Assembly: GCA_965277715.1 (NCBI GenBank)
Contig: OZ255836.1
Span: 3,296,001 to 3,360,000, forward strand
Length of the DNA: 64,000 bases
Direction of reading: 5' to 3'
Source of the DNA: Gammaproteobacteria bacterium
Lineage (GTDB): Bacteria; Pseudomonadota; Gammaproteobacteria; JBCCGL01
The notes under the pieces were generated by a model. The model searched no databases and had not been told where the DNA came from. It saw only the letters and a list, made by a program, of their open reading frames with translations. Both the position numbers and the translations under genes were made by a program. Shown in pieces: positions 41,091-60,810 of this stretch (position 1 is its first letter; each line of letters begins with the position of its first letter).

Positions 41091-41097
41091 GTGAACG

Positions 41098-42057: not shown

Positions 42058-42269
42058 TTATTTAGGGGGGCTTTCAATTATGATGTTTCACCACTGCTGT
42101 CCCGTTAACTTTCATAGCAACACCATTTGATTAATATCAGGCATACCATCTTGTATTGGATCACCACGGAGTAATGTCATGAAGTTATGCCTTGGCGTCA
42201 GGCTTTGGCAGCGTTGCAGTAATCTTCCAAAGCGTGCCTCGTATAATTCGCATGGCTTGCTCTCATTTT

Positions 42270-42653
42270 ACCCACTGATAAACCTTCACTTAATCGCTGT
42301 ACAGCGAGTGTGTTGACAGCTTGTTGGCAGGACTGATCTGCACTCATTGTTTGGTATAAAAACAGCGATAAGGTGTCTAGAGGAGGATAGCGACGCGCTC
42401 GAAAATCCGGTTGTAATTCTTCCAGCTTCGTAAGTAACTGAGAGGATGTCAGCAAGTGATAAAAACTCAATGCATCCGAGGATTGAGTTCGGCTTTTGAT
42501 GCGACGTTGAAGAATGTTGACTTTTACATTACTCTGCATGATGGCTGGTTCCTGTGGGATAAAGGGTATTTGTGTTGGCAACAAATAACCTACCATAGAA
42601 CCAGCTTTTTTTGTAATTACTTCAAATACTTACAGCTTAATGAAGTGCCATTC
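42270..42653 (-). mobile_element. IS4-family left end with truncated transposase, copy 1
   Basis: TIR GAATGGCACTTCATTAAG ending at 42653; RARRYPPLDTLSLFL.Q.MSADQSCQQAV N-terminal IS4 motif; inner limit approximate. Confidence 0.75.
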
Positions 42654-42672
42654 TGCCTTGACCCCTTTTTTC

Positions 42673-43439
42673 TCCACACACACAATTTTATCATGCAGAC
42701 AATCCGCTTTGGTAACGGCATTAAAACAAGCAAGGCCATCCGATATCACTGTTGTACCCGGTTCAATATGCTGCTTCGCCCACGCTTCAATCGCGTCACT
42801 ACGAAATCCCTCAACAACATTTAATTTTATGCGTATAGGTTGGCTGTTGGCTGTCGTTTCAACCGCCGCTACAAATGCTGTTTTCCCTTTTGCACCGCGT
42901 CCTCTCTTGCAACCTGAATGCTCACCCCCTAAATAAGCATCATCGAGTTCAACTAATCCTGATAACGGTTTTGATTCATCACGTTCATACATCACTTGCA
43001 TGATCTTGTGCTTTATATGCCAAGCGGCTTTATAGGAAATACCTAGATGCCTGTGTAACGCCATTGCAGACAGGCCTTTTTTATCTTGGGCAATCAAATA
43101 CAGTGCTTGAAACCAACAGGTTAACGGGCGTTTTGTGGCTTGAAAAATCGTACCGGCTGTAATCGATGTTTGGTGGTGGCAGCGATAGCACTGTTGGAGC
43201 TTACGTGTGGTTAATTGACACCCTTTATTATGTCCACAATTGGAACAGATAAACCCTTGGGGTCAGCGCCAATTGTAGCGTGCTGTAAAACACTGTTCCT
43301 CTGTGCCATAGGACTCAATGAAACGACTTAAGCTAAGGCCCATTTGAAACTGTACCGTATTGCGAGACATCATAAAAACCAATTAATTCAATAGCTTGTA
43401 TTTTATCATAGAGTAAGCTTAGCTTGGGTGGTAACTAGG
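42673..43439 (-). mobile_element. IS1595-family transposase pseudogene (internal stop, 3' truncated)
   Basis: MSRNTVQFQ..zinc finger, VELDDAYLGG, KRGRGAKGKTAF, VISDGL; in-frame TGA at 43263-65; left end near 43439. Confidence 0.88.
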
Positions 43440-43513
43440 AAATATTATGATCGATAATTTGGAAATTTATACGATTAGAAAATGGCACGCTACATTTTCA
43501 TCTTTTAAATAGT

Positions 43514-43532
43514 AAATAACTAGCCTGACCCC
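43514..43532 (+). repeat. Solo copy of the Y1-element terminal repeat
   Basis: AAATAACTAGCCTGACCCC, exact reverse complement of 50856-50874. Confidence 0.9.
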
Positions 43533-43539
43533 TTTTTCC

Positions 43540-44162
43540 ATCACCCTGGCCTCGGCATCCCGGTGGCGTTTTAGCTTAAACAATGCATCGCTACGGCCTG
43601 TGTGATAGTGGGCATTCTGGTGGTGAAGCATCAAGCCTTCACCGCCGTTGTCTACCAGTGTATCCAGTATCGCCATTAACGCCTTGTGACTGTCTACCCG
43701 AAACTGCTTTACTGCACGTAAATGCGGGTTATTGGCCACCTCGACGATATGATTAATTTTTTTAATGCGATCAGAAAAATTCCCCACAGCCCCCGGCAGT
43801 TCAAATACATAATAATTAACGAACCGCCATTCATCTTCGATAGGTGCACGTTTTTTAACGGTGCTGACAGTGCGCTCGAAACTGTTTCTGTCGATCCATA
43901 ATTCGCCGTCGAGTGGTGTGTTGGGGAAATTCCGGGTAAACCAATCCGGTGGGTAAAAGCGGTTGCCCTGTCTGGATACCAGGAATGTCCCGTTCCAATA
44001 GGCACGCACCCCGTCGAGTTTTTCGCTCACCCAGTAATCCTGTGCATTGACACCGGGGTGAAATTTTTTAGCGTGTATCAGTTCTGGGGCCGTGTTGGCC
44101 AGTGCTGTACCCAACAGCAGGGCATTGAATAGCACAGCGATGAGGCAATCAATCCTTTTCAT
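43540..44162 (-). pseudogene. 3'-truncated copy of the ATP-dependent DNA ligase (OB domain lost)
   Basis: Near-identical up to DAEARV, then reads into the repeat (MEKGVRLVIY). Confidence 0.9.
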
Positions 44163-44284
44163 GGTGCGTCCTTTGGTTCGGTTGCGTTGTGATAGGCACA
44201 CCATAATGCCATAGAACAATGAAAAATCCGAATTGTTGGCTACACTCAAGAGACACTTTGTTCCGGTTGGTAAGGGGAAAGCCT

Positions 44285-44821
44285 GTGAAAGGTATTGTGT
44301 TTACATTACTTAATGAAATGGTCGAAGAACAGTTTGGGCTTGAAGCGTGGGATCAATTAATTACCCAGTCGGGATCAGACGGTCTGTATATATCAACTGA
44401 GACGTATACCGATGAAGAACTGATGCGTTTGGTGGCGACAGCCAGTGAGATGACGGGTATCGCCGTAAATGACCTTGTCCGGGCATTTGGCACGTATATG
44501 TTTCCTCATTTTTACGCGAAATACCCGGTTTTTTTTAAACCCGATATGACGTTAAAATCTTTTCTATTAACCGTCGATAGGGTTATTCATGTCGAAGTGC
44601 GAAAACTGTACCCGGACGCTGGGCTGCCCAATTTTGACTATAAGGATGAGAACGATAACGAGTTGACGATGATCTACAGCTCACCGAGGAAGCTGTGTGC
44701 GTTGGCGGAAGGGTTGATTGCCGGAGCGGCCAAGCACTTTGGCACGCAATACACAATGGAACACACGGTTTGTATGCACAAGGGTGATGATTGTTGCCAT
44801 TTGAAAATGACTCTGGGGTAA
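44285..44821 (+). CDS. H-NOX protein, copy 2
   Basis: One substitution (FGAY to FGTY) relative to copy 1. Confidence 0.92.
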   Translation: MKGIVFTLLNEMVEEQFGLEAWDQLITQSGSDGLYISTETYTDEELMRLVATASEMTGIAVNDLVRAFGTYMFPHFYAKYPVFFKPDMTLKSFLLTVDRVIHVEVRKLYPDAGLPNFDYKDENDNELTMIYSSPRKLCALAEGLIAGAAKHFGTQYTMEHTVCMHKGDDCCHLKMTLG

Positions 44822-44828
44822 GTGAACG

Positions 44829-45788
44829 GTGGAAATTGCTACACTACAGCGCGCTTATGAGCGGGAGAAGGCCAAGAGGGTGCAAGCGGAATCATTGTTG
44901 GAGGATAAGTCGCGTGAGCTGTTCCTTTCTTACGAGGCGTTACAAAAATCCCACAATGAAATAAAGCAGGCTCACGAGGAATTAATACTCAAGCAGAAGC
45001 AGTTGGTTCAATCTGAAAAGATGGCCTCGCTGGGTATTATTTCAGCGGGTGTCGCCCACGAGATAAACAACCCGATTGGGTTTGTGCTGAGTAATATTGT
45101 TACGCTTGGCGAAAATGTTGCTGTATTTACTACGCTTTGCGAAAAGCTTGGTGTGCTTATTGACAAATGCAATGCCGGAGAGACAGTGGCTGAGGCGATT
45201 AATGCGCTGGCTGCATTTTCCGAACAGGAGGATTTGGCATTTCTTATTGAGGATGGCCAAACACTGATCGATGAAACCACAGAGGGTATTGTGCGTGTGC
45301 GCGATATTGTTGCCGGGTTAAAATCTTTTGCGCGTGTTGATACCGGGGAAAAAGAAAGTGCGAATATTAACGAATGCATCGAGTCCACGTTAAAAATACT
45401 GGGTAATCAGACAAAATATACCTGCACGGTGGAAAAACAATTAGGTGATATTCCTGTTATTCACTGTTTTCCCGGTAAGCTTAATCAGGTGTTTATGAAT
45501 CTTATTGTTAATGCAGTGCACGCTGTCGGTGATGGCGGGGTGATTCGCATTGCGTCGGTATGGGAAAATAATCAGGTGGTTATTAGGATTGCTGATAATG
45601 GTAAGGGGATTCCGGCTGAAAATATCCCCAATCTGTTTACGCCGTTTTTTACCACTAAACCGGTTGGGGAGGGGACGGGGCTTGGGCTGTCGATATCAAT
45701 GGGGATTGTTGAAGAGCATGGTGGTGCTATTGATGTTAACAGTGAGGTGGGTAAAGGTACGGTATTTACTGTAAGGCTGCCTGGTTGA
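44829..45788 (+). CDS. Histidine kinase, copy 2
   Basis: Protein identical to copy 1. Confidence 0.95.
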   Translation: MEIATLQRAYEREKAKRVQAESLLEDKSRELFLSYEALQKSHNEIKQAHEELILKQKQLVQSEKMASLGIISAGVAHEINNPIGFVLSNIVTLGENVAVFTTLCEKLGVLIDKCNAGETVAEAINALAAFSEQEDLAFLIEDGQTLIDETTEGIVRVRDIVAGLKSFARVDTGEKESANINECIESTLKILGNQTKYTCTVEKQLGDIPVIHCFPGKLNQVFMNLIVNAVHAVGDGGVIRIASVWENNQVVIRIADNGKGIPAENIPNLFTPFFTTKPVGEGTGLGLSISMGIVEEHGGAIDVNSEVGKGTVFTVRLPG

Positions 45789-46000
45789 TTATTTAGGGGG
45801 GCTTTCAATTATGATGTTTCACCACTGCTGTCCCGTTAACTTTCATAGTAACTTCATTTGATTAATATCAGGCATACCATCTTGTATTGGATCACCACGG
45901 AGTAATGCCATGAAGTTATGCCTTGGCGTCAGGCTTTGGCAGCGTTGCAGTAATCTCCCAAAGCGTGCCTCGTATAATTCGCATGGCTTGTTCTCATTTT

Positions 46001-46384
46001 ACCCACTGATAAACCTTCACTTAATCGCTGTACAGCGAGTGTGTTGACAGCTTGTTGGCAGGACTGATCTGCACTCATTGTTTGGTATAAAAACAGCGAT
46101 AAGGTGTCTAGAGGAGGATAGCGACGCGCTCGAAAATCCGGTTGTAATTCTTCCAGTTTCGTAAGTAACTGAGAGGATGTCAGCAAGTGATAAAAACTCA
46201 ATGCATCCGAGGATTGAGCTCGGCTTTTGATGCGACGTTGAAGAATGTTGACTTTTACATTACTCTGCATGATAGCTGGTTCCTGTGGGATAAAGGGTAT
46301 TTGTGTTGGCAATAAATAACCTACCATAGAACCAGCTTTTTTTGTAATTACTTCAAATACTTACAGCTTAAGGAAGTGCCATTC
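46001..46384 (-). mobile_element. IS4-family left end with truncated transposase, copy 2
   Basis: TIR GAATGGCACTTCCTTAAG ending at 46384. Confidence 0.75.
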
Positions 46385-46403
46385 AGGATTGACCCCTTTT
46401 TTC

Positions 46404-46471
46404 TTTGCCGTAAAAACGCTGTATATCCTCATTAACCCCTTGGTCTACATAGTCTGTGTAACGTTGACAGT
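46404..46471 (-). repeat. 68-bp internal fragment of the Y1 transposase gene
   Basis: Reverse complement of 51409-51476 with 2 mismatches. Confidence 0.92.
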
Positions 46472-46475
46472 TTCA

Positions 46476-46937
46476 TTACTTTGACTTGGCAACTAATACA
46501 CCAAGGCCAACAATTATTGCACCTACGATAACCCCTACCCAAAACTTGTCCACTTTTATTTTTTCTGAAATAACCTCTATTTTTTGATGTAGCAACTCAG
46601 GGGCGGAATTTATGTCTATTGCTTGGTGGTTGCCTACCCATCCGGGTAATTCTTCAGGGGTAATATCTATTAGTACTGGGATGATGTTTTTTTCTTGAAT
46701 TAGAGATGCCCCAAGTTCTTGCTGGACAGCAGCTGATTTTATTGAGCTTTTAGTTGCTAAAAAGAACACCCATTTAGCTTCATCTAAATGTTTGAATACT
46801 GCGTCAGTCCAGTTACTACCTGGCTTGATAGATATACCAGCTAAGAAAGTATCGATGCCAGCCATTGATGTCATGGTATGTAAATTTTTAGCTAGAGATT
46901 CATCTTTTACCGAATAACTAATAAATGCTGTTGCCAT
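46476..46937 (-). CDS. TIR-domain protein with C-terminal TM helix (cassette 3)
   Basis: AFISYS..D box 1, S.AVQQELG catalytic-Glu region, IIPV; C-terminal FWVGVIVGAIIVGLGVLV. Confidence 0.88.
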   Translation of the reverse strand: MATAFISYSVKDESLAKNLHTMTSMAGIDTFLAGISIKPGSNWTDAVFKHLDEAKWVFFLATKSSIKSAAVQQELGASLIQEKNIIPVLIDITPEELPGWVGNHQAIDINSAPELLHQKIEVISEKIKVDKFWVGVIVGAIIVGLGVLVAKSK

Positions 46938-47012: not shown

Positions 47013-47519
47013 TTATCTGGTCATGGTCTCAGCAAGACAATGGATTACCTCTTTTCCATCCTCATAAGCCTGAACCACCTCTCTGTATGTGGTAATTGAA
47101 TTGATTTTCCCTTCATGAGCAAAGTCGTTTCGCCAAGTGATTAAATTCGCATATGAGTTTGCTAAGTCTCTCTTATTTGTAACCAAGTAGGATTTAGAGG
47201 CCTTACCGAGTTTTCTCTTAAACCTTTTTTGATACTTATCGCCAAACTTTGAGATATATTCATCACGGATGACGTTTATTTTTATTTTCCCATTTATCCT
47301 ATGAAAATATGCTTCTGTAAAGTTGCCCAGCACCTTGTGCTTTCTTTGTGAAAAATTAATAAATATTTCTTTTACTGCTTGTTCATATACAGTAACAGCA
47401 GCGACTGACACAAAGCCTACATATTTGGCTTGCAATAGCGAGTCAGTAATGGATGGCATTACTGTATCAAGGTGCGTAATGACATCATCAGCATGCTGAA
47501 AATGATCTACGTAACTCAT
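47013..47519 (-). CDS. HEPN-domain nuclease (cassette 2, gene 2)
   Basis: WRNDFAHEG (RxxxxH) and upstream YEQAVKE helix. Confidence 0.82.
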   Translation of the reverse strand: MSYVDHFQHADDVITHLDTVMPSITDSLLQAKYVGFVSVAAVTVYEQAVKEIFINFSQRKHKVLGNFTEAYFHRINGKIKINVIRDEYISKFGDKYQKRFKRKLGKASKSYLVTNKRDLANSYANLITWRNDFAHEGKINSITTYREVVQAYEDGKEVIHCLAETMTR

Positions 47520-48605
47520 TTAGCCACCAAATAAAACGCATTTAACACGTTTCGTTCTGCTACTAACTGTTTTAATATCTGTAGTATTCACGCTTGTATC
47601 TTCTAAAAATTTTTCATCAACAATAAGTTTATTAAATCTTTCTGAAAGACTGAATTTAGATAGTTTGGAGTGGTTTTCAATCATTACAGACATAACAGAA
47701 TCCAAAGCAGAAATGTTAATTGGACCTCTTAAATTGAATGGTTTTTCTCCTAACTCAGAAATTATTTGCTCCGTGACTTCAGGAAATATCTTTAGAAAAT
47801 TAACCACTTTTTTAGTATTACCGCCTTGATGCTTCTTCATTGCCTTATTGAGATATTCTTTCATCGGCTTTTCGTATCCACCTTGTGAGCCAACAAGAGA
47901 AAATATCCTTAACAAAAGTTCGACATCTTTTTGGTGTTTATCTAGATTTTTCCTACCCAGGATCAAACGCCAGTTTGGATCTCTATTAGCTTCTTTTAAT
48001 AGACTGCTAAATTTACCTCGGAACACGCAGTTGCGAATCTCTTGAGGTTTTAACGGAGTTCCGCCAGTATTCAACCTTTCAAATATATGATAAGCACTGG
48101 TGCTCTCTCCAATCGGATTGAGCTGCCTAATATTAATGGCTCGCAATACTGCTTGTTTCAACTTCCTTTGGTCTGACTCACCCAAGTCTTCAAATTTTTT
48201 ACCATTGTAAGGATTGCCATCGCCAAGCCCTGAGAGTCTAAAAACCTGCCGTTTACCATGTGTACTTTCTTTTCCAAAGTATCCTTCCATAAAAAAAACG
48301 ATACTTAAAATCCTCTGCTGTCCATCAATAACAGAATTCATACTATTCTCGTCAATGTAGAAAAATACAGGCGGTACAGGTAGTCCGGCTAAAAAGGAAT
48401 CTACTAAAAGAGATGATTGCTTTATTCCCCAGACAAACTCGCGTTGGTAGTCCGGAATTTCAATATCTCCATCTTTCCACATCTGAGCAATACCGGATAA
48501 TGTATAGTCTGATGGGTAGCTTGCAATATCGTATTGAACCGTAACCGCATCCTCATCTTCTTCCACTTCGGTAGCTACGTCATCTTCCGCGAATTTTAAA
48601 TTCAT
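47520..48605 (-). CDS. DUF262 (GmrS/ParB-like) protein (cassette 2, gene 1)
   Basis: PDYQREFVW, VIDGQQR, IFERLNTGG..L.PQEIRN. Confidence 0.9.
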   Translation of the reverse strand: MNLKFAEDDVATEVEEDEDAVTVQYDIASYPSDYTLSGIAQMWKDGDIEIPDYQREFVWGIKQSSLLVDSFLAGLPVPPVFFYIDENSMNSVIDGQQRILSIVFFMEGYFGKESTHGKRQVFRLSGLGDGNPYNGKKFEDLGESDQRKLKQAVLRAINIRQLNPIGESTSAYHIFERLNTGGTPLKPQEIRNCVFRGKFSSLLKEANRDPNWRLILGRKNLDKHQKDVELLLRIFSLVGSQGGYEKPMKEYLNKAMKKHQGGNTKKVVNFLKIFPEVTEQIISELGEKPFNLRGPINISALDSVMSVMIENHSKLSKFSLSERFNKLIVDEKFLEDTSVNTTDIKTVSSRTKRVKCVLFGG

Positions 48606-48707: not shown

Positions 48708-50065
48708 CCTGATTTCAACTGCAAGAACACCACCATCAACTCGAGACGTGACTTGGCCGACATTTGGATTAGCATGGCTTATTGCTAGCGACTCTACCAA
48801 TTTGCTGCCTTTCATCTTGTTGACTTGAACGGAGTATCTTTCTTTCGGTTGATGTAATCCAGGTGGTGTGGCTAGGTTAAAAGAAAACGAAAGTTCTCCT
48901 GGGATGCCATTTTTTGAAACTTGGACAGGGCTAGTGTTTGTGTTTGGTAGGACTCTTTTCTTATTAGCGTTATATTGTAATTTAGCCAGCCTCTGCCCTT
49001 ACAACCTAACCAGGTTTTAAACGGGCCCCGGATGGCGCCACAACCACCAACCTTACCTCTCGCTAATACACAACGATTTCCGCTTGGTACCGTACCTTCA
49101 AAAGCAGAATGGCAGCTTTCGCCGGTTACTGAGACATCTGCTCTGATCAATGTTCCAGGGCCACTAATACACCATTCGCGGTCTACCCTATAGCTATCAT
49201 CACATATGCTACTTCCAGTATTTGCAAAAGGCTGTACTGGCTCTGCTACCTCTCTAAATGCTGTGTGCTCTACATGAGTAGAACCTGAAAGCTCATAGCG
49301 AAAAGGGGGTTCAAGAACAGTCAAACCAATTGGGCTTGAGCTAGCTGTGGCTGTATTTTCATGGCAACCGAGAACCCCCCATAACCACAAAGAACGGCTT
49401 ATTTCTTCAAGATTATCTACTTTAACGCTAACAATAACGTCGTTTTGATCTGCGGATTCCACTACAGATTTCGATATCTCAACAGATATTGCTGAGTCAA
49501 GGCGTTCAATAATTCTTGCCTCTATACCATTGACCAAAACCTTTAGGTTTTCTCCTTGGCGTAAAAAATTACCTTTTAGTGTTAATTTAGGAATGTCTTG
49601 GCCCACTTGTAATGTTGGAGGAAAGGAAGCAACAACTCTCGGCTTAGAATCTCTGCAAGGTAACGAATAACTTGTGTTGTATGCCAATATGTCCGCATCG
49701 ACTATAGTTGTTCTTGCTTCTTCACCAGCTTTCGCAATTATTTTCTGAGTTGCGACTTTCATGGTTCGAGTTAACTCTTGAGCATCTTCTACTAGCCTTA
49801 ATTCTGCCCCTTCGAGTTTATCTACAGTGTATTCCAGTTTGTGACCTAGCATTCTGTCAATGTCAGCTAGTACATTTTGCGCATTAGCCTGTAATGAGTT
49901 TCCTATGCTTTGAATGTCTTCGGTTCCTTCGTACATTGCTTCTCGAAATGACTCTATAAATCCTTCCAAAGTACTTTTTATAGCTAGAATAGTCAGAGGT
50001 TCCGCGGATACGGTATTTGAAGCCATTAATGTAATAGCGCAGATAAATAGACGTAATTTTTTCAT
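48702..50065 (-). pseudogene. Secreted Cys-rich hypothetical protein (cassette 1), frameshifted near 48940
   Basis: Signal peptide; ORF stops at 48872, but a second frame stays open from about 48940 to the TAA inside the attC R'' box. Confidence 0.7.
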
Positions 50066-50505: not shown

Positions 50506-50514
50506 AAAAAGGGG

Positions 50515-50850
50515 TCAATCGTATTTAATATTTTTCAAACGGTTGCAAACCTGCTCAAACACGCCCTTCAAGCCGCCGTCTGACAGCCCACTCTTTACAT
50601 AATCAATTGCAGGAGAAAGGCTACTAACACGACTATATCCAAACATATCAACCAGCGTTTTTAACGGCATATCCCCCAATTGCTGACAACAATATATCGC
50701 TACTTTACGAGGCAGATTCGCCCGTTGTCTCCCCCGCTGTCGCGTAAGTACATCACTCGCGTTAACGCCAAACACCGCTGCCACTGCATCGACTATAGCT
50801 GCACCCTTTGGCTTGTTCGTCACAATATGGGACAAGTCCCCCGATATGTG
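50515..50850 (-). pseudogene. C-terminal (DnaA-C-like HTH) fragment of a second, diverged Y1 transposase
   Basis: ANLPRKVAIYCCQQLGDMPLK resembles ANIPRKLAMYYCQRFGDMSLK of 50901-51869; stop TGA lies in the TGACCCC motif. Confidence 0.8.
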
Positions 50851-50855
50851 GAAAA

Positions 50856-51882
50856 GGGGTCAGGCTAGTTATTTATCATAGATTATGTCAATATCACCCC
50901 ATGCCAAGACCTCACCGCATAGAATATGAAAACGCCTTCTACCATATAATAAACCGTGGTCGGGAGCGTAAGACGGTTTTTCATAGCGAAGCTTACTACC
51001 AAGCGTTTCTCGCCACATTGACCGAAGCCGCAGAGCGTTTTCACGCCGTGATTCACGCTTATTGCCTAATGGGCAATCACTACCACCTACTGCTGGAAAC
51101 ACCTGATGCTAACCTCAGTCGCATTATGCAGCATATCGATGGTGTCTATACACAGCGTTATAACCGCCTTAAAAAAACGGATGGTTCTCAGTTTAGAGGG
51201 CGATTTAAAGCCATCAATGTCGATGAAGATGCGTATCTATTACCCCTGTCTCGCTATATACATAGAAACCCCATTGAGACTAAACGACCTCTGGTTCAAT
51301 CGCTAAAGAACTATTCCTGGTCTAGTTACCCGGCTTACATAGGAAAAGCATTGAGCCCTACTTGGTTGTGTCGTGATCGTGTTTATGCCTGTTTACCGGT
51401 GAAAAACGACTGTCAACGTTACACAGACTATGTAGACCAAGGGGTTGATGAGGATATACAGCGCTTTTACGGCAAAAATAACCTATCGACGGTGTTAGGT
51501 GACAAGGTGTTCCGCTCACAGTTGGCCGAGTACAAAGAAAGCCAGAGTGGCGTTGATGTGCGGCCCCAATTGCGGGAAAAGGTAGCCAGCAGTGTGATAG
51601 TAAAAACGGTGGCAAATTGTTGCCGAGTGAGTGAAGGCAGTGTTTCGGGTAGTCAAGGTAAGGGGGGTAGCGCGAACATTCCCCGCAAATTGGCCATGTA
51701 CTACTGCCAGCGGTTTGGTGATATGTCGTTAAAGGCGATTACTCAACATTTTGGGTTAAGTCACCCTGGTGGTGTGTCGAGTGCAATAGCTCACGTCAAG
51801 AAGGCGCTGGACAAGGGAGAACTTAAAGAGGTGATGCATCAAATTGAAAATCAGTTGAATAGTAAATAACTTGCCTGACCCC
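50856..51882 (+). mobile_element. Y1/HUH transposase element bounded by 19-bp inverted repeats
   Basis: GGGGTCAGGCTAGTTATTT (50856-74) and AAATAACTTGCCTGACCCC (51864-82), 1 mismatch. Confidence 0.85.
50901..51869 (+). CDS. RAYT-like Y1 (HUH) transposase with C-terminal HTH
   Basis: MPRPHR..YHIINRG, YCLMGNHYHLL (HUH), SRYIHRNP (catalytic Tyr), YSWSSY. Confidence 0.92.
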   Translation: MPRPHRIEYENAFYHIINRGRERKTVFHSEAYYQAFLATLTEAAERFHAVIHAYCLMGNHYHLLLETPDANLSRIMQHIDGVYTQRYNRLKKTDGSQFRGRFKAINVDEDAYLLPLSRYIHRNPIETKRPLVQSLKNYSWSSYPAYIGKALSPTWLCRDRVYACLPVKNDCQRYTDYVDQGVDEDIQRFYGKNNLSTVLGDKVFRSQLAEYKESQSGVDVRPQLREKVASSVIVKTVANCCRVSEGSVSGSQGKGGSANIPRKLAMYYCQRFGDMSLKAITQHFGLSHPGGVSSAIAHVKKALDKGELKEVMHQIENQLNSK

Positions 51883-51994
51883 TTTCTTAGCGGGTCAATA
51901 TATGACCCCTTTCTTTCGGACACCCTGCAATTACAACTCGTCAGCTAACAAGCCTATTTTAGCGGGCGCTTCAAACAAAATATTAATATCAAAA

Positions 51995-53596
51995 TTACAG
52001 ACCATCAATGCACCACACTGACTTTGCCTGATCGGCAAGCCATGTCTGATGATTCTCCAGGTTCGCTATATTCCAGCCGTCGTACTCAGCTATTTTCTGG
52101 TTAATCACAAACGGGCTTTTCGCAAGCATTGCTTTCTTTTGTATAAAAGATTCTTGGGCCATATTATCGCTCTTCGATAAAATCGCCATATTGCCCAGTC
52201 GGTCAATTGCGTCGTTATAATTCTCTTCGCCAAATGCTTCCTGCCAATCATCATTGGGTCGATAGGGCAACACATGCTCTAGTGTTAAGCTGACAGGAGA
52301 TTGGTAACCCTCGGATAATTTCTCTTCTATCCGGCATAATAAAAACACGATTTTTTTACTGCTTTGACGGCTCGGCATAGTTTTTTGCTTAAAAGCATTT
52401 TTAAATTCTTTATCCGATGGATAAATCGATTTAAGAAATTGCTTCACTTCATCAAAAGAAATTTCAGGCAATATGAAAATTTTATTCGCCAGTTTATTAT
52501 AAATGCTCTCTTGTTCACCCGCCGATTTATTGCAAATAATATTATACCGAACAGAAATAACCGTAATCCAACGCAGCAACTTGATGAAATCTTTTACTGA
52601 ATAATTACGATAAGCGACCATAAGCACACTCAATGGTGTTTTAATATTGAAAGTATTTAATAACTCTAGATAAGGTTTGGCCTCAGTGTATTGGCCACCT
52701 TCATATTCAAGCCAAAATCCATCCTGGTGGTTTTGTAAAGCTGCGTAAACTGGTGCATTCTTCTTAATCTCATAGATGTAAGGCATGACTTTATCAAAAG
52801 CATTAATTTTCTTTTTCACAATTCGATATAGATCTTTTTTATACGGCAAAGAATCACTAATACCTATATGGCTTCTCAAAAAATTAGTGAAATCTGTGGC
52901 ACCTAATTGACCCAAAATATCACCCCAATGCCGTTCAAATATTCCAAAATTATTTTCTGTCATTTGAGAACCCGTTGACAGAGTGGATAAAAAATAGTTT
53001 TTTAGCAAATCAGGCGCTGATAAATGCATACCACGTGCATTCAAAGTTTCAAAGACAAGGTAAGCATTTAAGTCATCTTTAACTGTAATTGTAGTGAACA
53101 TTAAACCATCAGTGATATTATTAATTAGCTTCGCCACTTCCTCGCCACTTTTAAAAGCACGCATCTTCTTTTGAAAAAAATCGAACGTTTTATTAAGCTT
53201 TCTATTAGTCCTTGTGATGCCTCTTTTTCTGGGCACACCATACTGATCTAACATATCGATAAAATGCGGGTTATTGTGGCGGTTCAACTCTAATTTTGAA
53301 GAGGTTTGTAATGTTACCGTATCGAGTAAACCGAGATAGGTTTGGTGATAAGTAACCATTCTCTTGTCATTGCGCTCGCTATCTTCACCTTGCTCGATCA
53401 TTTTTTTAAACACGTCGAGTGCCGACAGAATCAACAGCAAAATAGTCGTCAGCCTTTGTTGCCCATCAATGATTTCAAAACGTTTGTTGTCGTCAGATTG
53501 AAAAACCAAATAACCCATAAAATGCTGAATCTGTGCTTCCAGCATTTGCTCAACATCCTGCCAAAACTCTTCCAGTTGAGGTTCTTCCCAAGAGTA
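51995..53596 (-). pseudogene. 5'-truncated duplicate of the DUF262/DUF1524 gene
   Basis: Aligns with 53998-55599 (offset 2003); lacks the N-terminal ..PPFQRD; cut beside GGGGTCA at 53602. Confidence 0.88.
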
Positions 53597-53601
53597 GCAA
53601 A

Positions 53602-53692
53602 GGGGTCAGGCTTATTATTCACCATACAACGACTAATACGGATAAAAACAGTGATTTCCAGCAAGAAGTATAGGAAATAACTGCATTGACCC
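53602..53692. mobile_element. About 91-bp non-coding mini-element with Y1-element ends
   Basis: GGGGTCAGGCTTATTATT ... AAATAACTGCATTGACCC. Confidence 0.7.
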
Positions 53693-53900
53693 GAATGGCA
53701 CTTCCTTAAGACGTAAGCAACTGATAGTAAAGAGTTTATTTATTATTTCTAAGAAAAAAAATGATATTTTGAAAGTTGCCGCCAATGATAACCGGGATAG
53801 TTTTACAAATATTGCTTTCAAGAACCATATGCCAAGTTATCTGAACCAAGCATGTAGTACCAATACTTTCAAATACTTACAGCTTAAGGAAGTGCCATTC
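53693..53900. mobile_element. 208-bp IS4-derived MITE
   Basis: Perfect 18-bp TIRs GAATGGCACTTCCTTAAG / CTTAAGGAAGTGCCATTC; right part matches the IS4 end at about 46350-46384. Confidence 0.85.
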
Positions 53901-53997
53901 TTGCCTGCCCCCTTTCTTTCGGACACCCTGCAATTACAACTCGTCAGCTAACAAGCCTATTTTAGCGGGCGCTTCAAACAAAATATTAATATCGAAA

Positions 53998-55695
53998 TTA
54001 CAGACCATCAATGCACCACACTGACTTTGCCTGATCGGCAAGCCATGTCTGATGATTCTCCAGGTTCGCTATATTCCAGTCGTCGTACTCAGCTATTTTC
54101 TGGTTAATCACAAACGGGCTTTTCGCAAGCATTGCTTTCTTTTGTATAAAAGATTCTTGGGCCATATTATCGCTCTTCGATAAAATCGCCATATTGCCCA
54201 GTCGGTCAATTGCGTCGCTATAATTCTCTTCGCCAAATGCTTCCTGCCAATCATCATTGGGTAGATAGGGCAACACATGCTCTAGTGTTAAGCTGACAGG
54301 AGATTGGTAACCCTCGGATAATTTCTCTTCTATCCGGCATAATAAAAACACGATTTTTTTACTACTTTGACGGCTCGGCATAGTTTTTTGCTTAAAAGCA
54401 TTTTTAAATTCTTTATCCGATGGATAAATCGATTTAAGAAATTGCTTCACTTCATCAAAAGAAATTTTAGGCAATATGAAAATTTTATTCGCCAGTTTAT
54501 TATAAATGCTCTCTTGTTCACCCGCCGATTTATTGCAAATAATATTATACCGAACAGAAATAACCGTAATCCAACGCAGCAACTTGATGAAATCTTTTAC
54601 TGAATAATTATGATAAGCGACCATAAGCACACTCAATGGTGTTTTAATATTGAAAGTATTTAATAACTCTAGATAAGGTTTGGCCTCAGTGTATTGGCCG
54701 CATTCATATTCAAGCCAAAATCTATCCTGGTGGTTTTGTAAAGCTGCGTAAACTGGTGCATTCTTCTTAATCTCATAGATGTAAGGCATGACTTTATCAA
54801 AAGCATTAATTTTCTTTTTCACAATTCGATATAGATCTTTTTTATACGGCAAAGAATCACTAGTACCTATATGGCTTCTCAAAAAATTAGTGAAATCTGT
54901 GGCACCTAATTGACCCAAAATATCACCCCAATGCCGTTCAAATATTTCAAAATCATTTTCTGTCATTTGAGAACCCGTTGACAGAGTGGATAAAAAATAG
55001 TTTTTTAGCAAATCAGGCGCTGATAAATGCATACCACGTGCATTCAAAGTTTCAAAGACAAGGTAAGCATTTAAGTCATCTTTAACTGTAATTGTAGTGA
55101 ACATTAAACCATCAGTGATATTATTAATTAGCTTCGCCACTTCCTCGCCACTTTTAAAAGCACGCATCTTCTTTTGAAAAAAATCGAACGTTTTATTAAG
55201 CTTTCTATTAGTCCTTGTGATGCCTCTTTTTCTGGGCACACGATACTGATATAACATATCGGCAAAATGCGGGTTATTGTGGCGGTTCAACTCTAATTTT
55301 GAAGAGGTTTGTAATGTTACCGTATCAAGTAAACCGAGATAGGTTTGGTGATAAGTAACCATTCTCTTTTCATTGCGCTCGCTATCTTCACCTTGCTTGA
55401 TCATTTTTTTAAACACGTCGAGTGCCGACAGAATCAACAGCAAAATAGTCGTCAGCCTTTGTTGCCCATCAATGATTTCAAAACGTTTGTTGTCGTCAGA
55501 TTGAAAAACCAAATAACCCATAAAATGCTGAATCTGTGCTTCCAGCATTTGCTCAACATCCTGCCAAAACTCTTCCAGTTGAGGTTCTTCCCAAGAGTAA
55601 TCTCGTTGAAAAGGCGGCACTCGATAACTTTTACCGTTGCTCATCACCTCGGCAAATGTTTTATTTTCTGGTTCTAAATAAATTTTTTTGAACAT
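53998..55695 (-). CDS. GmrSD-like type IV restriction endonuclease (DUF262 + DUF1524 HNH)
   Basis: PPFQRDYSW, IIDGQQRLTT, VFETLNARG; TLEHVLP..LGNMAIL...N. Confidence 0.9.
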   Translation of the reverse strand: MFKKIYLEPENKTFAEVMSNGKSYRVPPFQRDYSWEEPQLEEFWQDVEQMLEAQIQHFMGYLVFQSDDNKRFEIIDGQQRLTTILLLILSALDVFKKMIKQGEDSERNEKRMVTYHQTYLGLLDTVTLQTSSKLELNRHNNPHFADMLYQYRVPRKRGITRTNRKLNKTFDFFQKKMRAFKSGEEVAKLINNITDGLMFTTITVKDDLNAYLVFETLNARGMHLSAPDLLKNYFLSTLSTGSQMTENDFEIFERHWGDILGQLGATDFTNFLRSHIGTSDSLPYKKDLYRIVKKKINAFDKVMPYIYEIKKNAPVYAALQNHQDRFWLEYECGQYTEAKPYLELLNTFNIKTPLSVLMVAYHNYSVKDFIKLLRWITVISVRYNIICNKSAGEQESIYNKLANKIFILPKISFDEVKQFLKSIYPSDKEFKNAFKQKTMPSRQSSKKIVFLLCRIEEKLSEGYQSPVSLTLEHVLPYLPNDDWQEAFGEENYSDAIDRLGNMAILSKSDNMAQESFIQKKAMLAKSPFVINQKIAEYDDWNIANLENHQTWLADQAKSVWCIDGL

Positions 55696-55915
55696 AACTT
55701 CAGATTATATGCAAGATGCAGAAAGAAAAACAGTTGATCAATATAGCCACTGCACGCCTATCGTATAAGCTGATTATCAGGCATAGAATGCCATGCATCC
55801 GCTAGAGCCTGCTGATGTTTCACGCTAAGCTATTGAATTTATTGGTTTTTATGCAAATTATTATTTTAGAAATTTTATTATAAATCAACAAGTTACGACC
55901 AAACGCCAACAAGCC

Positions 55916-57462: not shown

Positions 57463-58059
57463 ATGATAACAACACTCGCCGACTGTACCACTATTCAATC
57501 CGGGCATCCATTTCGTGGGGCTATTGCTGAAAAGCCAGGCAGTGGTATCCGGGCTATTCAAATTAAGGATGCCTCTGGCGACGGTGGTATTCAGTGGTCG
57601 CAGTTGGTCGAGACGGAAGCCGTCACGCAAAAGCCACCTGTGGGTCTGCAAAAAAACGATATATTGTTCGCCGCCCGCAATAGCCGCCACTATGCGGTGC
57701 TGGTCGATCAATCTGGCGCGCTTACGCTTTGCTCACCGCACTTTTATGTGCTGACGATCAAGTGCCCTCAGTTGCTGCCCGCGTTTCTCGTTTGGCAGCT
57801 CAACCAACCTGAGTTGCAGCGTTATTTTAAGCAGCAGGCCGAAGGCAGCACAACGAAAAGTATCAGTTGCCCCAATTTGGGCAAAGCCCGCATTAGCTTG
57901 CCCCCGTTGGCTATCCAGCAAAAAATTGTGCAGTTGCACGCTAATCTGCAACAGCAAAAGCGTGTCTATCAGCAACTGATTCTCAACACCGACAAATTCA
58001 TGCATAGTATCGGTTCGGCCATCCTCGGTCAGGATCATCCCTCTTCGGAAAATGTATGA
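57463..58059 (+). CDS. Single-TRD type I R-M specificity-like protein
   Basis: IQSGHPFR, LQKNDILFAAR, LPPLAIQQKIV; directly upstream of hsdM. Confidence 0.8.
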   Translation: MITTLADCTTIQSGHPFRGAIAEKPGSGIRAIQIKDASGDGGIQWSQLVETEAVTQKPPVGLQKNDILFAARNSRHYAVLVDQSGALTLCSPHFYVLTIKCPQLLPAFLVWQLNQPELQRYFKQQAEGSTTKSISCPNLGKARISLPPLAIQQKIVQLHANLQQQKRVYQQLILNTDKFMHSIGSAILGQDHPSSENV

Positions 58060-59591
58060 ATAGCAGTATTAACCAAGACAGTATTAACAGCGCCCTGTGG
58101 AGTGTGTGTGATGTATTCCGTGGCACTGTCAGCCCGGATACGTATAAAGATTTCATCCTCACTATGTTGTTTTTAAAGTACGTCTCTGACGTGTGGCAGG
58201 ATCACTACGATACCTTCCAGGCAACCTATAGTGATGCTGATCTGATCACCGAAATGCTAAAAAATGAACGCTTTGTGCTGCCTGAGACGGCCAATTTTTA
58301 CTATTTGTATGCACATCGCCACACGCCGGGCAATGGCGAGCGTATCGATACTGCGCTGTATACGCTGGAGGAAGCCAACGGTAGCAAGCTTAACGATGGC
58401 AATAAATCGGTCTTTCAGGATATCAGTTTCAACACTGACCGCCTCGGCGAGGTGAAGCAAAAAAATACCATGCTGCGCGAGATGCTGGAGATCTTCGCCA
58501 AACCCACGCTCAACCTGCGCCCTAGCCGCGTGGGCAATATCGACGTGATCGGCAACGCCTATGAGTACCTGATTAAGCAATTTGCCTCCACCAGCGGTAA
58601 AAGCGCGGGGGAGTTTTACACTCCGCCGGAGGTCTCCGACCTGATGGCCGAGCTGCTCGACCCACAAGTGGGGGATCGCATCTGTGACCCGGCGTGTGGC
58701 TCGGCCTCACTGCTGATGAAATGCGGGCGCAAGATCCGCGAGCGCCACGACAGCAGGCACTATGAGCTGTACGGTCAGGAAGCGATTGGCGCTACCTGGT
58801 CACTGGCGAAGATGAATATGTTTCTACACGGTGAAGACAACCACCGCATCGAGTGGGGGGATACCATCCGCAACCCGAAATTGCTGGATGCCGAAGGCGG
58901 GCTGATGCGATTTGATATTGTCACCGCCAACCCACCGTTTAGCCTGGATAGGTGGGGTTATGACGATGTGGGCAAAGACCCCTACGAACGCTTTGCCCGT
59001 GGTATGCCGCCGAAAACCAAGGGCGACTACGCTTTTATACTGCATATGCTGAAAACCCTGGGGATGCCGTCCCCCGATAAACACCCGGCGCGGATGGGCG
59101 TAGTGGTGCCGCACGGCGTGTTGTTTCGTGGCAGTAGCGAGGCAAAGATTCGTAGCCAGTTGATCGATGAAAACTTGCTCGATTGTGTGATTGGCCTACC
59201 CGAAAAGCTGTTTTTTGGCACCGGCATCCCGGCGGCTATTTTACTGTTTAAACGCGAAAAGTTGGACAGCAGCGTGCTCTTTATTGATGCCAGCCACGCC
59301 TTTAAATCGATCAAAAACCAGAATCAGTTATTACCCGAACATATCGATAAAATTATTAACACCTACCGTGCGCGTAAAAGCGTGGATAAATACGCCTACC
59401 TGGCAAGCCCTGCAGAGATTCAGGAAAACGACTACAACCTGAATATACCGCGCTATGTGGATACCTTTGAGGAGGAGGAAGAGATTGATTTAATGGCGGT
59501 GCGTAAGGAACAGCAAAGCTTGCAGGTAGAGCTAAATAGGCTTGAAGAGGAGATGGCGGGGTATTTGAAGGAGTTAGGGTATGGGGATTAA
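58056..59591 (+). CDS. hsdM: Type I R-M methyltransferase subunit
   Basis: GEFYTPPEV, DPACGS, ANPPF, HGVLFRG, NLNIPRY. Confidence 0.96.
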   Translation: MNSSINQDSINSALWSVCDVFRGTVSPDTYKDFILTMLFLKYVSDVWQDHYDTFQATYSDADLITEMLKNERFVLPETANFYYLYAHRHTPGNGERIDTALYTLEEANGSKLNDGNKSVFQDISFNTDRLGEVKQKNTMLREMLEIFAKPTLNLRPSRVGNIDVIGNAYEYLIKQFASTSGKSAGEFYTPPEVSDLMAELLDPQVGDRICDPACGSASLLMKCGRKIRERHDSRHYELYGQEAIGATWSLAKMNMFLHGEDNHRIEWGDTIRNPKLLDAEGGLMRFDIVTANPPFSLDRWGYDDVGKDPYERFARGMPPKTKGDYAFILHMLKTLGMPSPDKHPARMGVVVPHGVLFRGSSEAKIRSQLIDENLLDCVIGLPEKLFFGTGIPAAILLFKREKLDSSVLFIDASHAFKSIKNQNQLLPEHIDKIINTYRARKSVDKYAYLASPAEIQENDYNLNIPRYVDTFEEEEEIDLMAVRKEQQSLQVELNRLEEEMAGYLKELGYGD

Positions 59592-60810
59592 CAGGGTGAG
59601 ACCAAGAAACACTTGTAAGAGAAATGTATTGGGGGAGTGGAAAATCACGAATATAGGAAAAATAACAGAAACAGTTACAAGTGGCTCGCGTGATTGGGCA
59701 AAATACTATTCATCTCAAGGCAGTAAATTCATACGAATGACCAACTTAAATAGAAATGGTATTAAGTTATTGCTACATGATTTAAAGTATGTTGACGTTC
59801 AGGGCAATTCATCTGACGGAAAACGCACATCCTTAAAAGCAGGTGATGTTCTTATATCAATTACTGCGGAATTAGGAAAAATTGGCTATGTGCCAGACTC
59901 ATTGGGAGAGGCGTATATCAATCAACATATTGCATTGCTAAGATTTCAAAAAAGTAAAGCTATATCGCGCTATATTGCTTATTTATTATCATCTAAACGA
60001 GTCAACTATTTAATTAATACATTGAATGACTCTGGTGTTAAAGCCGGTTTAAATTTAACCACTATTAAAAGTATTAATATTTATTTGCCTCCTGTAATAG
60101 AACAACAAAAAATCGCAAAAATACTCACCACCTGGGACCAGGCAATTACTACCACTGAGCATTTGATCGCCAATAGTCAAAAACAGAAAAAAGCGTTGAT
60201 GCGGCAGTTATTATTAGGGGGAAGGCGCTTTCCCAATTCTAAAGAAAAATGGCAAAAACATAAACTCAAGAAAATTGCAGATATAAAAAAAGGGAAATCA
60301 CTTAGTAGAAAAAGAATTGAAGTTGGCATATATGCTGTAATAGCAGGTGGAAAAACTAGTCCATATGCTCATTCACAGTATACAGATGAAAATGTAATCA
60401 CTATTAGCGCCAGTGGCGCGTATGCAGGGTATGTTGCATACCATAATTACAAAATATGGGCTTCAGATTGCTCAGTAGCAAAAGCAAAAGAAGGCTCTTG
60501 TACAAAATTTATTTATTATTTTCTAAAAATGATACAAAAAAACATATACTTTATGCAAAGCAGAGGTGTTCAACCACACGTTTACCCAAAGGATTTGCAT
60601 GCAATTGAATTGAAAGTACCAAGCTTAAAAGAACAACAAAAAATCGCATCAGTGCTAACCTGCACTGACAAAAAAATCGAAACGCTGCAACAGAAGCTAG
60701 ATTACTTAAAACAACAAAAACAATCCCTAATGCAACAATTGCTCACTGGTAAACGCCGGGTGCAAATTGACCCTTCTGGCAGCTATCAGCAACAGGTTGC
60801 CTGCGACTAA
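59581..60810 (+). CDS. hsdS: Type I R-M specificity subunit
   Basis: Two TRDs with PPVIEQQKIA and PSLKEQQKIA spacers, LMQQLLTG. Confidence 0.94.
   Translation: MGINRVRPRNTCKRNVLGEWKITNIGKITETVTSGSRDWAKYYSSQGSKFIRMTNLNRNGIKLLLHDLKYVDVQGNSSDGKRTSLKAGDVLISITAELGKIGYVPDSLGEAYINQHIALLRFQKSKAISRYIAYLLSSKRVNYLINTLNDSGVKAGLNLTTIKSINIYLPPVIEQQKIAKILTTWDQAITTTEHLIANSQKQKKALMRQLLLGGRRFPNSKEKWQKHKLKKIADIKKGKSLSRKRIEVGIYAVIAGGKTSPYAHSQYTDENVITISASGAYAGYVAYHNYKIWASDCSVAKAKEGSCTKFIYYFLKMIQKNIYFMQSRGVQPHVYPKDLHAIELKVPSLKEQQKIASVLTCTDKKIETLQQKLDYLKQQKQSLMQQLLTGKRRVQIDPSGSYQQQVACD

Follow-up and report, generated by a model that had tools for sequence, protein, structure and literature searches.

The locus analysed here raises the question of whether a gene for a Y1 transposase enclosed by true terminal inverted repeats (TIRs) forms a mobile element, and how such an element would move. 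The window is a stretch of 64,000 nucleotides (64 kb) of gammaproteobacterial DNA, to which all coordinates below refer. We are fairly confident that the feature designated element A is a TIRtron, that is, a one-gene, IS-like element which encodes a TIRYT product, is bounded by GGGGTCA-tipped true inverted repeats and probably is now, or was recently, mobile. The first-pass annotation of this DNA had presented the arrangement as an unrecognised departure from the Y1 rule. This proved not to be the case, as TIRYTs and TIRtrons with the motif GGGGWSAS have already been described (PMC3733652; PMC6006769). The element class, the motif and the repeat families are already in print, and as a discovery the locus is modest. 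New here are the near-identical intact copies, the junctions with cut genes, the duplication joints and an IS4-family element fixed in the right TIR.

Element A and its protein

Element A occupies positions 50853–51885 (+ strand; 1,033 bp) and is bounded by TIRs of 23 nt that match at 22 of 23 positions. The outer tip of the left TIR (50853–50875, + strand), GGGGTCAG, fits the published GGGGWSAS motif, and 25 nt separate the end of this arm from the ATG at 50901, a distance that is typically 16–27 nt in relatives. The TIRYT gene (50901–51869, + strand) encodes 322 aa, and its stop codon TAA (51867–51869) lies inside the right TIR (51863–51885, − strand), as had been noted before. A repeat search returned the same two arms, 23 nt long and 96% complementary, both of which read GGGGTCAG. 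When the pair was scored by the scheme used for relatives, it reached 20.5, whereas 500 shuffles averaged 7.7 and did not exceed 14.0. The 19-bp repeat of the first-pass annotation is therefore real, but its length is 23 nt, 4 nt more than was given. Its view that the element has true TIRs instead of subterminal hairpins also holds, since hairpins of the IS200/IS605 type were not found at the ends of element A, which fold no better than shuffles (z of +0.93 and +0.52), and the arms contain no perfect palindrome or stem longer than 3 bp.

The 322-aa protein is a Y1/HUH domain (residues about 11–123) fused to a C-terminal helix-turn-helix (HTH) of the DnaA domain IV type (residues about 225–320). 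The HUH motif is formed by H60-Y61-H62, and the catalytic tyrosine is Y119 in YIHRNP. Pfam searches identified Y1_Tnp with an E-value of 4.1e-14, confirming the earlier assignment as a Y1 transposase, and Bac_DnaA_C with an E-value of 5.1e-7. The latter match scores 30.1 bits on this protein alone, which is under the Pfam cut-off of 31.5, and PF08299 is carried by 111 of 120 homologues among the matches listed. Homologues at E <= 1e-3 were numerous (7,143 of 8,000 scored candidates), and in an alignment of 20 of them Y61, H62, Y119, I120, H121, N123 and P124 were invariant and H60 nearly so. Among solved structures, a single-sequence search with the 322-aa protein gave no matches, while a search with the TIRYT family profile found only the DnaA domain (domain IV, E 2.4e-11), the Y1 domain being recovered only through fold comparison. 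The AlphaFold model of the protein, which is of moderate confidence (mean pLDDT 70, pTM 0.48), is closest to 4er8_A, a REP-associated tyrosine transposase (TM on target 0.61), followed by the ISDra2, IS608 and IS200 transposases. Its C-terminal part resembles the DnaA DNA-binding domain (3pvp_B, TM 0.78; 1j1v_A, TM 0.80).

The names TIRYT and TIRtron, together with the motif GGGGWSAS, were introduced by Di Nocera, De Gregorio & Rocco (2013, BMC Genomics 14:522; PMC3733652). Element A shares with their elements the RAYT-like Y1 gene, the true TIRs, the GGGGWSAS tip and the fixed short distance between TIR and gene, as well as TIRs that can extend into the 3' end of the gene, and TIR copies that recur elsewhere as singles, dimers or groups. 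The available sections of that paper deal with repeated TIR families, whereas here several near-identical whole-gene copies, nested and truncated copies, and junctions are present, and the species that those sections name do not include the host. Quentin et al. (2018; PMC6006769) tied TIRYTs to TnpA_REP subclass 2.1, which is present in 14.9% of the surveyed strains and for which Bac_DnaA_C/HTH tails and no REPs are described. The long Y1 protein of element A, with its Y---NP tyrosine motif followed by a serine motif (WSSY here), resembles those of subclasses 2.1.2 and 2.3, and its C-terminal Bac_DnaA_C-type HTH and the absence of REPs nearby are features of subclass 2.1.2 (PMC6006769). Subclass 2.3 has two conserved core insertions, a distal tail of its own and a median length of 325 aa, and reaches a per-genome copy number above five in Chromatiales and Alteromonadales (PMC6006769); as described there, it is matched by element A in length (322 aa), in the presence of at least five variants and in the taxa of the relatives. 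Roughly, subclasses 2.1.2 and 2.3 correspond to what Bertels et al. (2017) call RAYT Group 1, which is more IS-like than any other RAYT group (PMC5581495). Element A differs from the two subclasses in that the surveys found low intragenomic copy conservation (PMC6006769), whereas the copies here are 97–100% identical.

Two other systems are close enough to be compared. Like REPtrons (PMC3333891), element A has its gene between two copies, in inverted orientation, of a short repeat which is also present elsewhere, and the closest solved fold (4er8) is from this group. It differs from them by its non-palindromic arms, the absence of GTAG-tagged hairpins and the extra HTH domain, and REP_Tyr_transpos (NF047646), although the best NCBIfam model for the protein, scores 59.6 bits and does not reach its cut-off of 80. 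In addition, the gene is present in multiple copies (five intact variants), whereas REPtrons typically have one per genome, and its repeats are not dispersed through the window, in contrast to REP hairpins, which are highly repeated in intergenic DNA. With the IS200/IS605 elements IS608, ISDra2 and IS200, element A has in common the Y1/HUH catalytic domain and insertion without target duplication; it is set apart by having true TIRs where those elements have subterminal hairpins on the same strand, by a 200-aa C-terminal extension, by the absence of tnpB and by a transpos_IS200 (NF033573) score of 26.1 bits, where the cut-off is 55.

Relatives, derivatives and remnants

In order to compare the layout across genomes, 78 related loci were taken, from which 12 (gene partial or off the contig) and a further 5 (flanks too short) were left out, giving 61 tested relatives. 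A flanking inverted repeat scoring above all 100 shuffles was observed in 47 of them, with the same layout of a GGGGTCA-tipped TIR whose right arm overlaps the stop codon; a significant TIR was not found in the remaining 14. The GGGGTCA-type core is at the outer tip in 42 of the 47, and protein identity in the relatives is only 39–56%. A target-site duplication was not found at the flanks of element A in the window, nor in 39 relatives, where no combination of boundary offsets of 0–6 nt with lengths of 2–8 nt rose above the maximum of 200 partner permutations. The flanks of element A are T/C-rich, reading outward, and likewise in the 39 relatives, in agreement with the lack of a target duplication and the outward T-tracts recorded earlier. 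Plasmids are not an evident vehicle, because the DNA of element A has no match among them and, of 72,556 plasmid records searched with the protein, 25 gave a match, each to less than 80% of its length.

Within the window, AAAGGGGTCAGGC with at most two mismatches occurs nine times where 1.53 occurrences are expected, a number reached by none of 100 shuffles. All eight exact copies of AAAGGGGTCA are located at 42.6–53.9 kb. The exact heptamer GGGGTCA or its complement occurs 14 times, nine of them at 42.6–53.6 kb, including a chance match inside an IS1595 gene (43259). At least three repeat families, namely TIRtron, IS4-type and IS1595, are present in several copies across the region.

Immediately to the left of element A lies what remains of another, divergent TIRtron, element B (50508–50852, − strand), which has the end variant AAAGGGGTCAATC and is cut where the left TIR of element A starts. 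Only its last 106 codons (50515–50835) remain, with the stop TGA within the TGACCCC motif; the encoded fragment is 40% identical to the element A protein and matches Bac_DnaA_C at 1.5e-8 (35 bits, above the cut-off). To the right of element A, a head-to-head pair of end motifs (51892–51912, GGGTCA / TGACCC forming a hairpin, then TTT) is contained in a 27-bp insert that has 13-bp direct repeats of TGACCCCTTTCTT on either side (51876–51888 and 51903–51915). A short derivative is located at 53599–53692 (+ strand). Its left TIR is good (53599–53630; outer 13 nt exact, 82% identity over 33 nt), while its right end, at 53692, is essentially TGACCC only and is cut by an adjoining 208-bp IS4-type MITE (53693–53900). 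Of the mini-element of about 91 bp earlier proposed at 53602–53692, the left end is thus sound and the right boundary weak. Beyond the MITE follows the piece TTGCCTGCCCCCTTT (53901–53915, − strand), which is homologous to the right TIR of element A, positions 53900–53918 being 95% identical to 51870–51888.

The feature at 43398–43535 (+ strand) is a short derivative or a solo right end, with a complete right TIR at 43500–43535 (36 nt, 89% identical to element A's right end), in agreement with the solo end previously noted at 43514. Of a left TIR, the inner part can be recognised, but an IS1595 end has taken the place of the tip. At 46387–46471 (− strand), an end motif (46387–46399) is joined to a 73-nt internal piece of the TIRYT gene (46399–46471, 95% identical to 51409–51481), and a further end motif (42656–42668, − strand) lies beside an IS4-type terminus, with its outer edge adjoining a truncated IS1595 transposase gene. 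A full-length member is accompanied in the window by truncated ones, by short derivatives and by solo ends, and the earlier suggestion of a family with full-length and non-autonomous-like kin is thereby supported. The element B remnant, the gene fragment at 46399–46471 and the ends at 42656–42668 and 46387–46399 are additions to the earlier description.

Junctions and tandem duplications

Five TIRtron ends adjoin genes that are cut precisely there, and two of these five are the joints of tandem duplications, one of a GmrSD defence gene and one of a ligase/H-NOX/kinase block. In each duplication, the outer edge of the end motif is the exact point at which one gene copy is cut, while its duplicate is whole. 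In the 2,003-bp duplication, exactly the 27-bp micro-hairpin piece is missing from the other copy, and the second, 3,731-bp (3.7-kb) duplication is 99.2% identical.

The truncated genes and tandem duplications may have arisen by ordinary homologous recombination among the repeats of this island and not through the TIRYT enzyme, an explanation that we put at a little below an even chance. At least three multi-copy repeat families are available for it, deletions between dispersed repeats yield one-sided junctions without any special mechanism, and the IS4-type MITE lies between two differing right-TIR pieces (6 of 11 nt identical), which has the look of a recombinant. Recombination fits less well with the breakpoints, which coincide with the TIR edge instead of falling within the repeats, and with one gene copy being cut at the outer edge of the end motif and the other whole in both duplications; had a repeat within the gene crossed over unequally with one beyond it, the second copy too would have been interrupted. 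Unequal crossing-over of an element within the gene with one beyond it was rejected as a sufficient cause, the second gene copy being intact. Replicative transposition of element A in its simple form is also insufficient, the junction element (53599–53915) being a diverged derivative with 82% identity in the TIR region, compared with 98.6% between the duplicated segments.

One-ended HUH joining, as a nick-and-join, a replicative or a sister-chromatid process, could in principle have produced both the adjacent deletions and the tandem duplications of the GmrSD gene and the ligase/H-NOX/kinase block, with an IS4-family element that has in addition evolved to home to a single set position in the right TIR. 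We consider this combined scenario rather improbable. If it is true, the mode of TIRYT movement would for the first time be indicated at the sequence level, and TIRYTs would have a part in shaping defence islands. TIRYTs are very common, and the literature searched contained no demonstration that they move, or how; the term TIRtron was not found in the literature searched from 2018 on. With its near-identical copies, short derivatives and informative junctions, the host genome offers a good natural system for asking whether true TIRs can be used by a Y1 enzyme, what the DnaA-like domain reads and whether the rearrangements at the ends are caused by these elements.

The IS4-family element, which has 10 cluster members on the host contig, occupies the same position in the TIRtron right TIR at all four termini observed in this one window. 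Some insertion sequences home to REP sequences. The element resembles these in its fixed position, the target here being a TIRtron end and not a REP, and the comparison covers three or four junctions in one window. The 16 nt common to the sequences after the IS4-type termini (from 42654 and from 46385) were considered as part of the 3.7-kb duplication, a reading that is doubtful because three of the four bases just before them differ though the duplication is 99.2% identical. A 132-aa IS fragment matched no Pfam families and was identified through a search for longer relatives.

Proposed movement and mobility

For the movement of element A as a TIRtron, we envisage that the HTH domain would dock the TIRYT on the conserved TIR, and that, at each end, the Y1 domain would form a 5'-phosphotyrosine link in nicking a single strand at the GGGG tip or close to it, and would then rejoin the nicked end to target DNA. 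The absence of a target duplication would be expected of such a process, because Y1 nick-rejoin chemistry needs no staggered cut. The contact between HTH and TIR is a guess, because the TIR is unlike a DnaA box, the two motifs being different (PMC6006769). The short derivatives may have been mobilised, or left behind, by the same TIRYT enzyme.

Alternatively, the enzyme might act on single strands at replication forks in the manner of REPtrons or IS200/IS605 elements, recognising a tag with a small hairpin or the paired arms, in which case the appearance of a TIR would be merely that of two inverted REP-like units. This is a credible alternative, if on balance not a probable one. The nearest solved fold is that of a TnpA_REP bound to a REP hairpin, and seamless ends without a target-site duplication suit single-strand HUH chemistry. 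A perfect palindrome of at least 5 bp is present in the left arms of 21 of 42 relatives, and in 19 of these 21 it starts 2–5 nt into the GGGGTCAA...TTGAC core. The pair at 51892–51908 and the 94-nt derivative (53599–53692) can also fold through their ends (z of −5.48 and −1.62, respectively). The arms of element A itself, however, have no hairpin and are about 1 kb apart in the full element, and the added HTH domain, of a double-strand type, is conserved across the family.

The micro-hairpin noted at 51892 in the first-pass annotation is well supported, as it folds with −5.5 kcal/mol (51892–51908) and none of 200 shuffles folds as well. That this structure of 18–21 bp simply serves the transposase gene as its intrinsic terminator, instead of being a miniature element, we regard as unlikely. 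A scan flags it as terminator-like on the + strand, with a 6-bp stem containing four GC pairs and a T-rich tail, and it starts 23 nt past the stop codon; but both arms of the stem are the family end motif (GGGTCA / TGACCC then CTTT), precisely this insert is missing from the other copy of the 2,003-bp duplication, and TIR copies as dimers were reported by Di Nocera et al. (PMC3733652). The terminator and miniature-element readings do not exclude each other.

A cluster look-up identified five distinct intact 322-aa variants in the host genome, 97–100% identical to the element A protein, and the family therefore looks recently mobile. Copy number and junctions indicate mobility of the TIRtron only indirectly, and from these sequence features we infer that element A is probably autonomously mobile, now or recently. 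An empty site for a complete simple insertion was not found, only one-sided joints being seen. Such IS-like behaviour is not the family norm, because published surveys report low copy numbers and few near-identical duplicates: the genes of TnpA_REP subclass 2.1 and class 2 Y1 are mostly low-copy with diverged intragenomic copies (PMC6006769), and a near-identical duplicate was found for only 6.3% of RAYT Group 1 members (PMC5581495). It is very improbable that the gene is a domesticated, immobile RAYT-like gene whose inverted repeats are regulatory or structural and whose neighbouring motifs are a small, maintained REP-like family: RAYTs in general are single-copy-like and vertically inherited (PMC5581495), class 2 Y1 genes are low in both intragenomic copy number and copy conservation (PMC6006769) and the full-length architecture is rare on plasmids, but one genome holds the five intact variants, the repeat unit encloses the whole gene, copies are truncated at TIR edges (50852|50853 and 46399|46400) and the exact motif copies of the 64 kb all fall in one 11-kb IS-rich stretch instead of being dispersed intergenically. 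These five variants and one 135-aa fragment lie on the 4,294,796-bp contig that also carries the two GmrSD proteins of the window.

The full-length element and its transposase

The full-length TIRtron, here termed element A, occupies 50853..51885 (+) and measures 1,033 bp. It contains an ORF of 322 codons (ATG at 50901, TAA at 51867-51869) encoding a TIR-associated tyrosine transposase (TIRYT), and its terminal inverted repeat (TIR) has two 23-nt arms, 50853-50875 and 51863-51885, with 22 matching positions. With the same ungapped scoring as used for the relatives (loci from other genomes bearing homologous TIRYT genes), the arm pair scored 20.5, whereas 500 shuffles of the downstream zone averaged 7.7 and reached 14.0 at most. 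The first-pass annotation had described a Y1 gene bounded by TIRs with its stop codon inside the right one, and this is the arrangement found. The outer 13 nt, AAAGGGGTCAGGC, occur nine times in the window at two or fewer mismatches (1.53 expected), a count reached by none of 100 shuffles, and all eight exact copies of AAAGGGGTCA in the 64-kb window are within 42.6-53.9 kb.

Pfam searches with the 322-aa protein gave matches to Y1_Tnp (E 4.1e-14) and Bac_DnaA_C (5.1e-7, 30.1 bits, slightly below the cut-off of 31.5). The best NCBIfam model was the REP-associated tyrosine transposase (59.6 bits, cut-off 80), while the IS200 model gave 26.1 against a cut-off of 55. The catalytic residues were observed in an alignment with 19 homologues, where Y61, H62 and Y119-I-H-x-N-P are invariant, as is a W-S-S-Y motif, and H60 is nearly invariant. 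A single TIRYT sequence gave no match among solved structures, and a 20-sequence profile matched DnaA domain IV (E 2.4e-11). The AlphaFold model (mean pLDDT 70, pTM 0.48) has the REP-associated tyrosine transposase of E. coli (4er8_A) as its nearest structure, followed by the ISDra2, IS608 and IS200 transposases, and its C-terminal part resembles the DNA-binding domains of DnaA (3pvp_B, TM 0.78; 1j1v_A, 0.80). Based on the Pfam, alignment, profile and fold matches, the protein is thus a Y1/HUH enzyme with a fused DnaA-type helix-turn-helix.

Genes and elements of this kind were named TIRYTs and TIRtrons by Di Nocera et al., who report GGGGWSAS as common to many TIRtron TIRs, similar TIR-to-gene distances among TIRtrons, TIRs that may overlap the 3' end of the gene, and moderately abundant TIR families occurring as singles, dimers or groups (PMC3733652). 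As this class has already been described, element A is a new, unusually active-looking member of it. Quentin et al. assigned 20 of 26 TIRYTs to TnpA_REP subclass 2.1, whose members they describe as having Bac_DnaA_C or HTH tails without REPs nearby, and reported poor conservation of intragenomic copies in class 2 (PMC6006769). RAYT Group 1, to which subclass 2.1 corresponds, is the most IS-like RAYT group according to Bertels et al., with a near-identical duplicate in 6.3% of members and a plasmid location for 1.2% (PMC5581495). By exact look-up, the cluster of the element A protein comprises a 135-aa fragment and five distinct variants of 322 aa with 97-100% identity to that protein; all are encoded on the 4,294,796-bp contig that also encodes the two GmrSD proteins of the window. 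Unlike the published norm, the five near-identical variants, which represent several fresh copies, are IS-like. In a search of literature outside subscription journals, we found no experimental work on TIRYT mobility, nor the term TIRtron from 2018 on. The element is of interest as a natural model of a transposase that is common yet unstudied.

Terminal inverted repeats in related loci

A protein search scored 8,000 candidates, 7,143 of them at E <= 1e-3, and both Pfam domains were present in 111 of 120 homologues among the matches listed (our own count). One scan of genome contigs retained 78 loci with relatives 39-69% identical, none of them from the window's own genome. Leaving out 12 with a partial gene or a gene running off the contig end and 5 with too little flank, 61 loci were tested. 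In 47 of these, the zone ahead of the start codon and the zone around the stop share an inverted repeat that scored above all 100 shuffles; no such repeat was found in the other 14. The TIRs are conserved in the family, with GGGGTCA or a close variant as the outer tip in 42 of the 47 loci with a significant repeat. The left arm usually ends 16-27 nt ahead of the start codon, and the right arm extends from 20-30 nt inside the gene's 3' end to at most ~10 nt beyond it. In many relatives the TGA of TGACCCC serves as the stop codon, and the same holds (50515-50517) for element B, a truncated, divergent TIRtron remnant next to element A.

The ends are seamless: in the 39 loci with complete flanks, no target-site duplication was detected at any offset or length tried. 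In the same loci, purines predominate in the 8 nt beyond the tip when either side is read inward, with A at positions -1 and -2 in 24-32 of 39, so that the outward-reading T-tracts first remarked on at element A are a general property. A perfect palindrome of at least 5 bp is present in 21 of 42 left arms; in 19 of these it begins 2-5 nt inside the core (GTCAA...TTGAC). Half of the relatives accordingly have a small hairpin beside the GGGG tip, unlike element A, which has none and whose longest arm palindrome is 3 bp. Palindromes of 5-6 bp directly after the GGGG tip, not found in the window's element, give a tag-plus-hairpin layout recalling REPs (loci L005, L010, L016, L020, L026, L032, L038, L044, L045, L053, L061, L078 and others).

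The helix-turn-helix domain would dock on the TIR; since Quentin et al. describe the TIR as unlike the DnaA box (PMC6006769), the domain would then have changed specificity. The Y1 domain may nick one strand near the GGGG tip, and the nicked strand would be rejoined to target DNA via a covalent tyrosine link, a nick-and-rejoin reaction that would explain why target duplications are lacking. The substrate may be single-stranded, as it is for TnpA_REP and IS608.

Copies and derivatives in the defence island

The 42-56 kb region, with a GC content of 41% compared with 49% for the entire window, constitutes a defence and mobile-gene island. It encodes a TIR_2-domain protein (46476-46937), a HEPN RiboL-PSP protein (47013-47519), a GmrSD_N/DUF262 protein (47520-48605), a protein of 397 aa bearing a signal-like N-terminus (48872-50065) and two GmrSD genes (51995-53545, truncated; 53998-55695, whole), and the S and M subunits of a type I restriction-modification system follow from 57463 (57463-63998). 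Element B (50508-50852), in opposite orientation to element A, represents a second, divergent family: no more than the last 106 codons of its gene are left, its protein is 40% identical to that of element A with a Bac_DnaA_C match of 35 bits, and its end variant is AAAGGGGTCAATC.

One short derivative spans 53599-53692 and continues at 53901-53915; another spans 43398-43535. The former had been annotated as a 91-bp mini-element and has a sound left end (53599-53630) and a weak right end, into which the terminus of another element cuts; the solo end proposed in the latter holds up, with 89% identity across 36 nt (43500-43535). At 46387-46471, a 73-nt internal fragment of a TIRYT gene is joined to an end motif. 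A head-to-head pair of end motifs at 51892-51912, including the previously noted micro-hairpin (51892-51908), which folds at -5.5 kcal/mol (z -5.48), is inside a 27-bp insert with 13-bp direct repeats on either side, and the insert is missing from the other copy of a local duplication. An autonomous element with derivatives is a reasonable reading, and the short derivatives and solo ends may use or record the same nick-and-rejoin reaction. By eye, 12 of 42 relatives (e.g., L006, L010, L013, L019, L026, L058, L068, L077) were counted as having an extra GGGTC-type motif no more than 16 nt outside one TIR, recalling the motif pair beside the right TIR of element A; such motifs may reflect insertion next to existing ends, or footprints.

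Rearrangement joints and an IS4-type element at the TIRs

Two side observations are of interest: rearrangements have joints at the edges of TIRs, and an IS4-type element appears to home to the TIR. A tandem duplication with a spacing of 2,003 bp (51903-53598 and 53906-55601, 1,673 of 1,696 positions identical, 98.6%) carries a GmrSD-type restriction gene, of which copy 2 (565 aa) is complete and copy 1 is without its N-terminus, cut at 53598/53599, exactly where a TIRtron left end has its outer edge. A second one, with a spacing of 3,731 bp (39809-42653 and 43540-46384, 2,823 of 2,845 positions identical, 99.2%), contains a partial ATP-dependent DNA ligase, an H-NOX (HNOB) protein, a histidine kinase and a truncated IS4-type element, at whose terminus the shared segment stops. 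The second ligase copy is cut at ~43535/43540, the outer margin of a TIRtron right end, and the other copy is whole. Further genes are cut at end motifs at 50852/50853, where element B stops exactly at the start of the left TIR of element A, at 46399/46400 and at ~42671/42672 (IS1595). In total, five ends adjoin a gene cut there, and the missing gene part is not across the element. These one-sided joints could result from one-ended or replicative joining between sister chromosomes, although the element at the GmrSD-duplication junction is a diverged derivative and no fresh copy of element A. They could equally be what is left of homologous recombination among the many repeats, perhaps with precise excision afterwards, but if unequal crossing-over acted alone, the second gene would remain interrupted. 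Neither simple model accounts for all details of the joints.

The IS1595-family transposase pseudogene (42672-43397) has an in-frame stop and is truncated on its 3' side at a TIRtron end motif. Upstream of the intact GmrSD gene, the IS1595 end region recurs as a 27-nt copy (55827-55853). The full IS4-family transposase is P0130 (462 aa; NF033592, 216.5 bits), and its cluster has 10 members on the host contig. Transposase fragments are found at 42198-42596 and 45929-46327, termini at 42629-42653 and 46360-46384, and a 208-bp MITE at 53693-53900. The right terminus is exactly 5 nt ahead of TGACCCC or TGCCCCC at 42653, 46384 and 53900, and TGACCC directly precedes the left terminus of the MITE. 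This register of the termini suggests that the IS4-family element homes to the TIRtron right TIR at a single fixed position. The flanks of the MITE agree at only 6 of 11 positions and therefore derive from two different TIRs.
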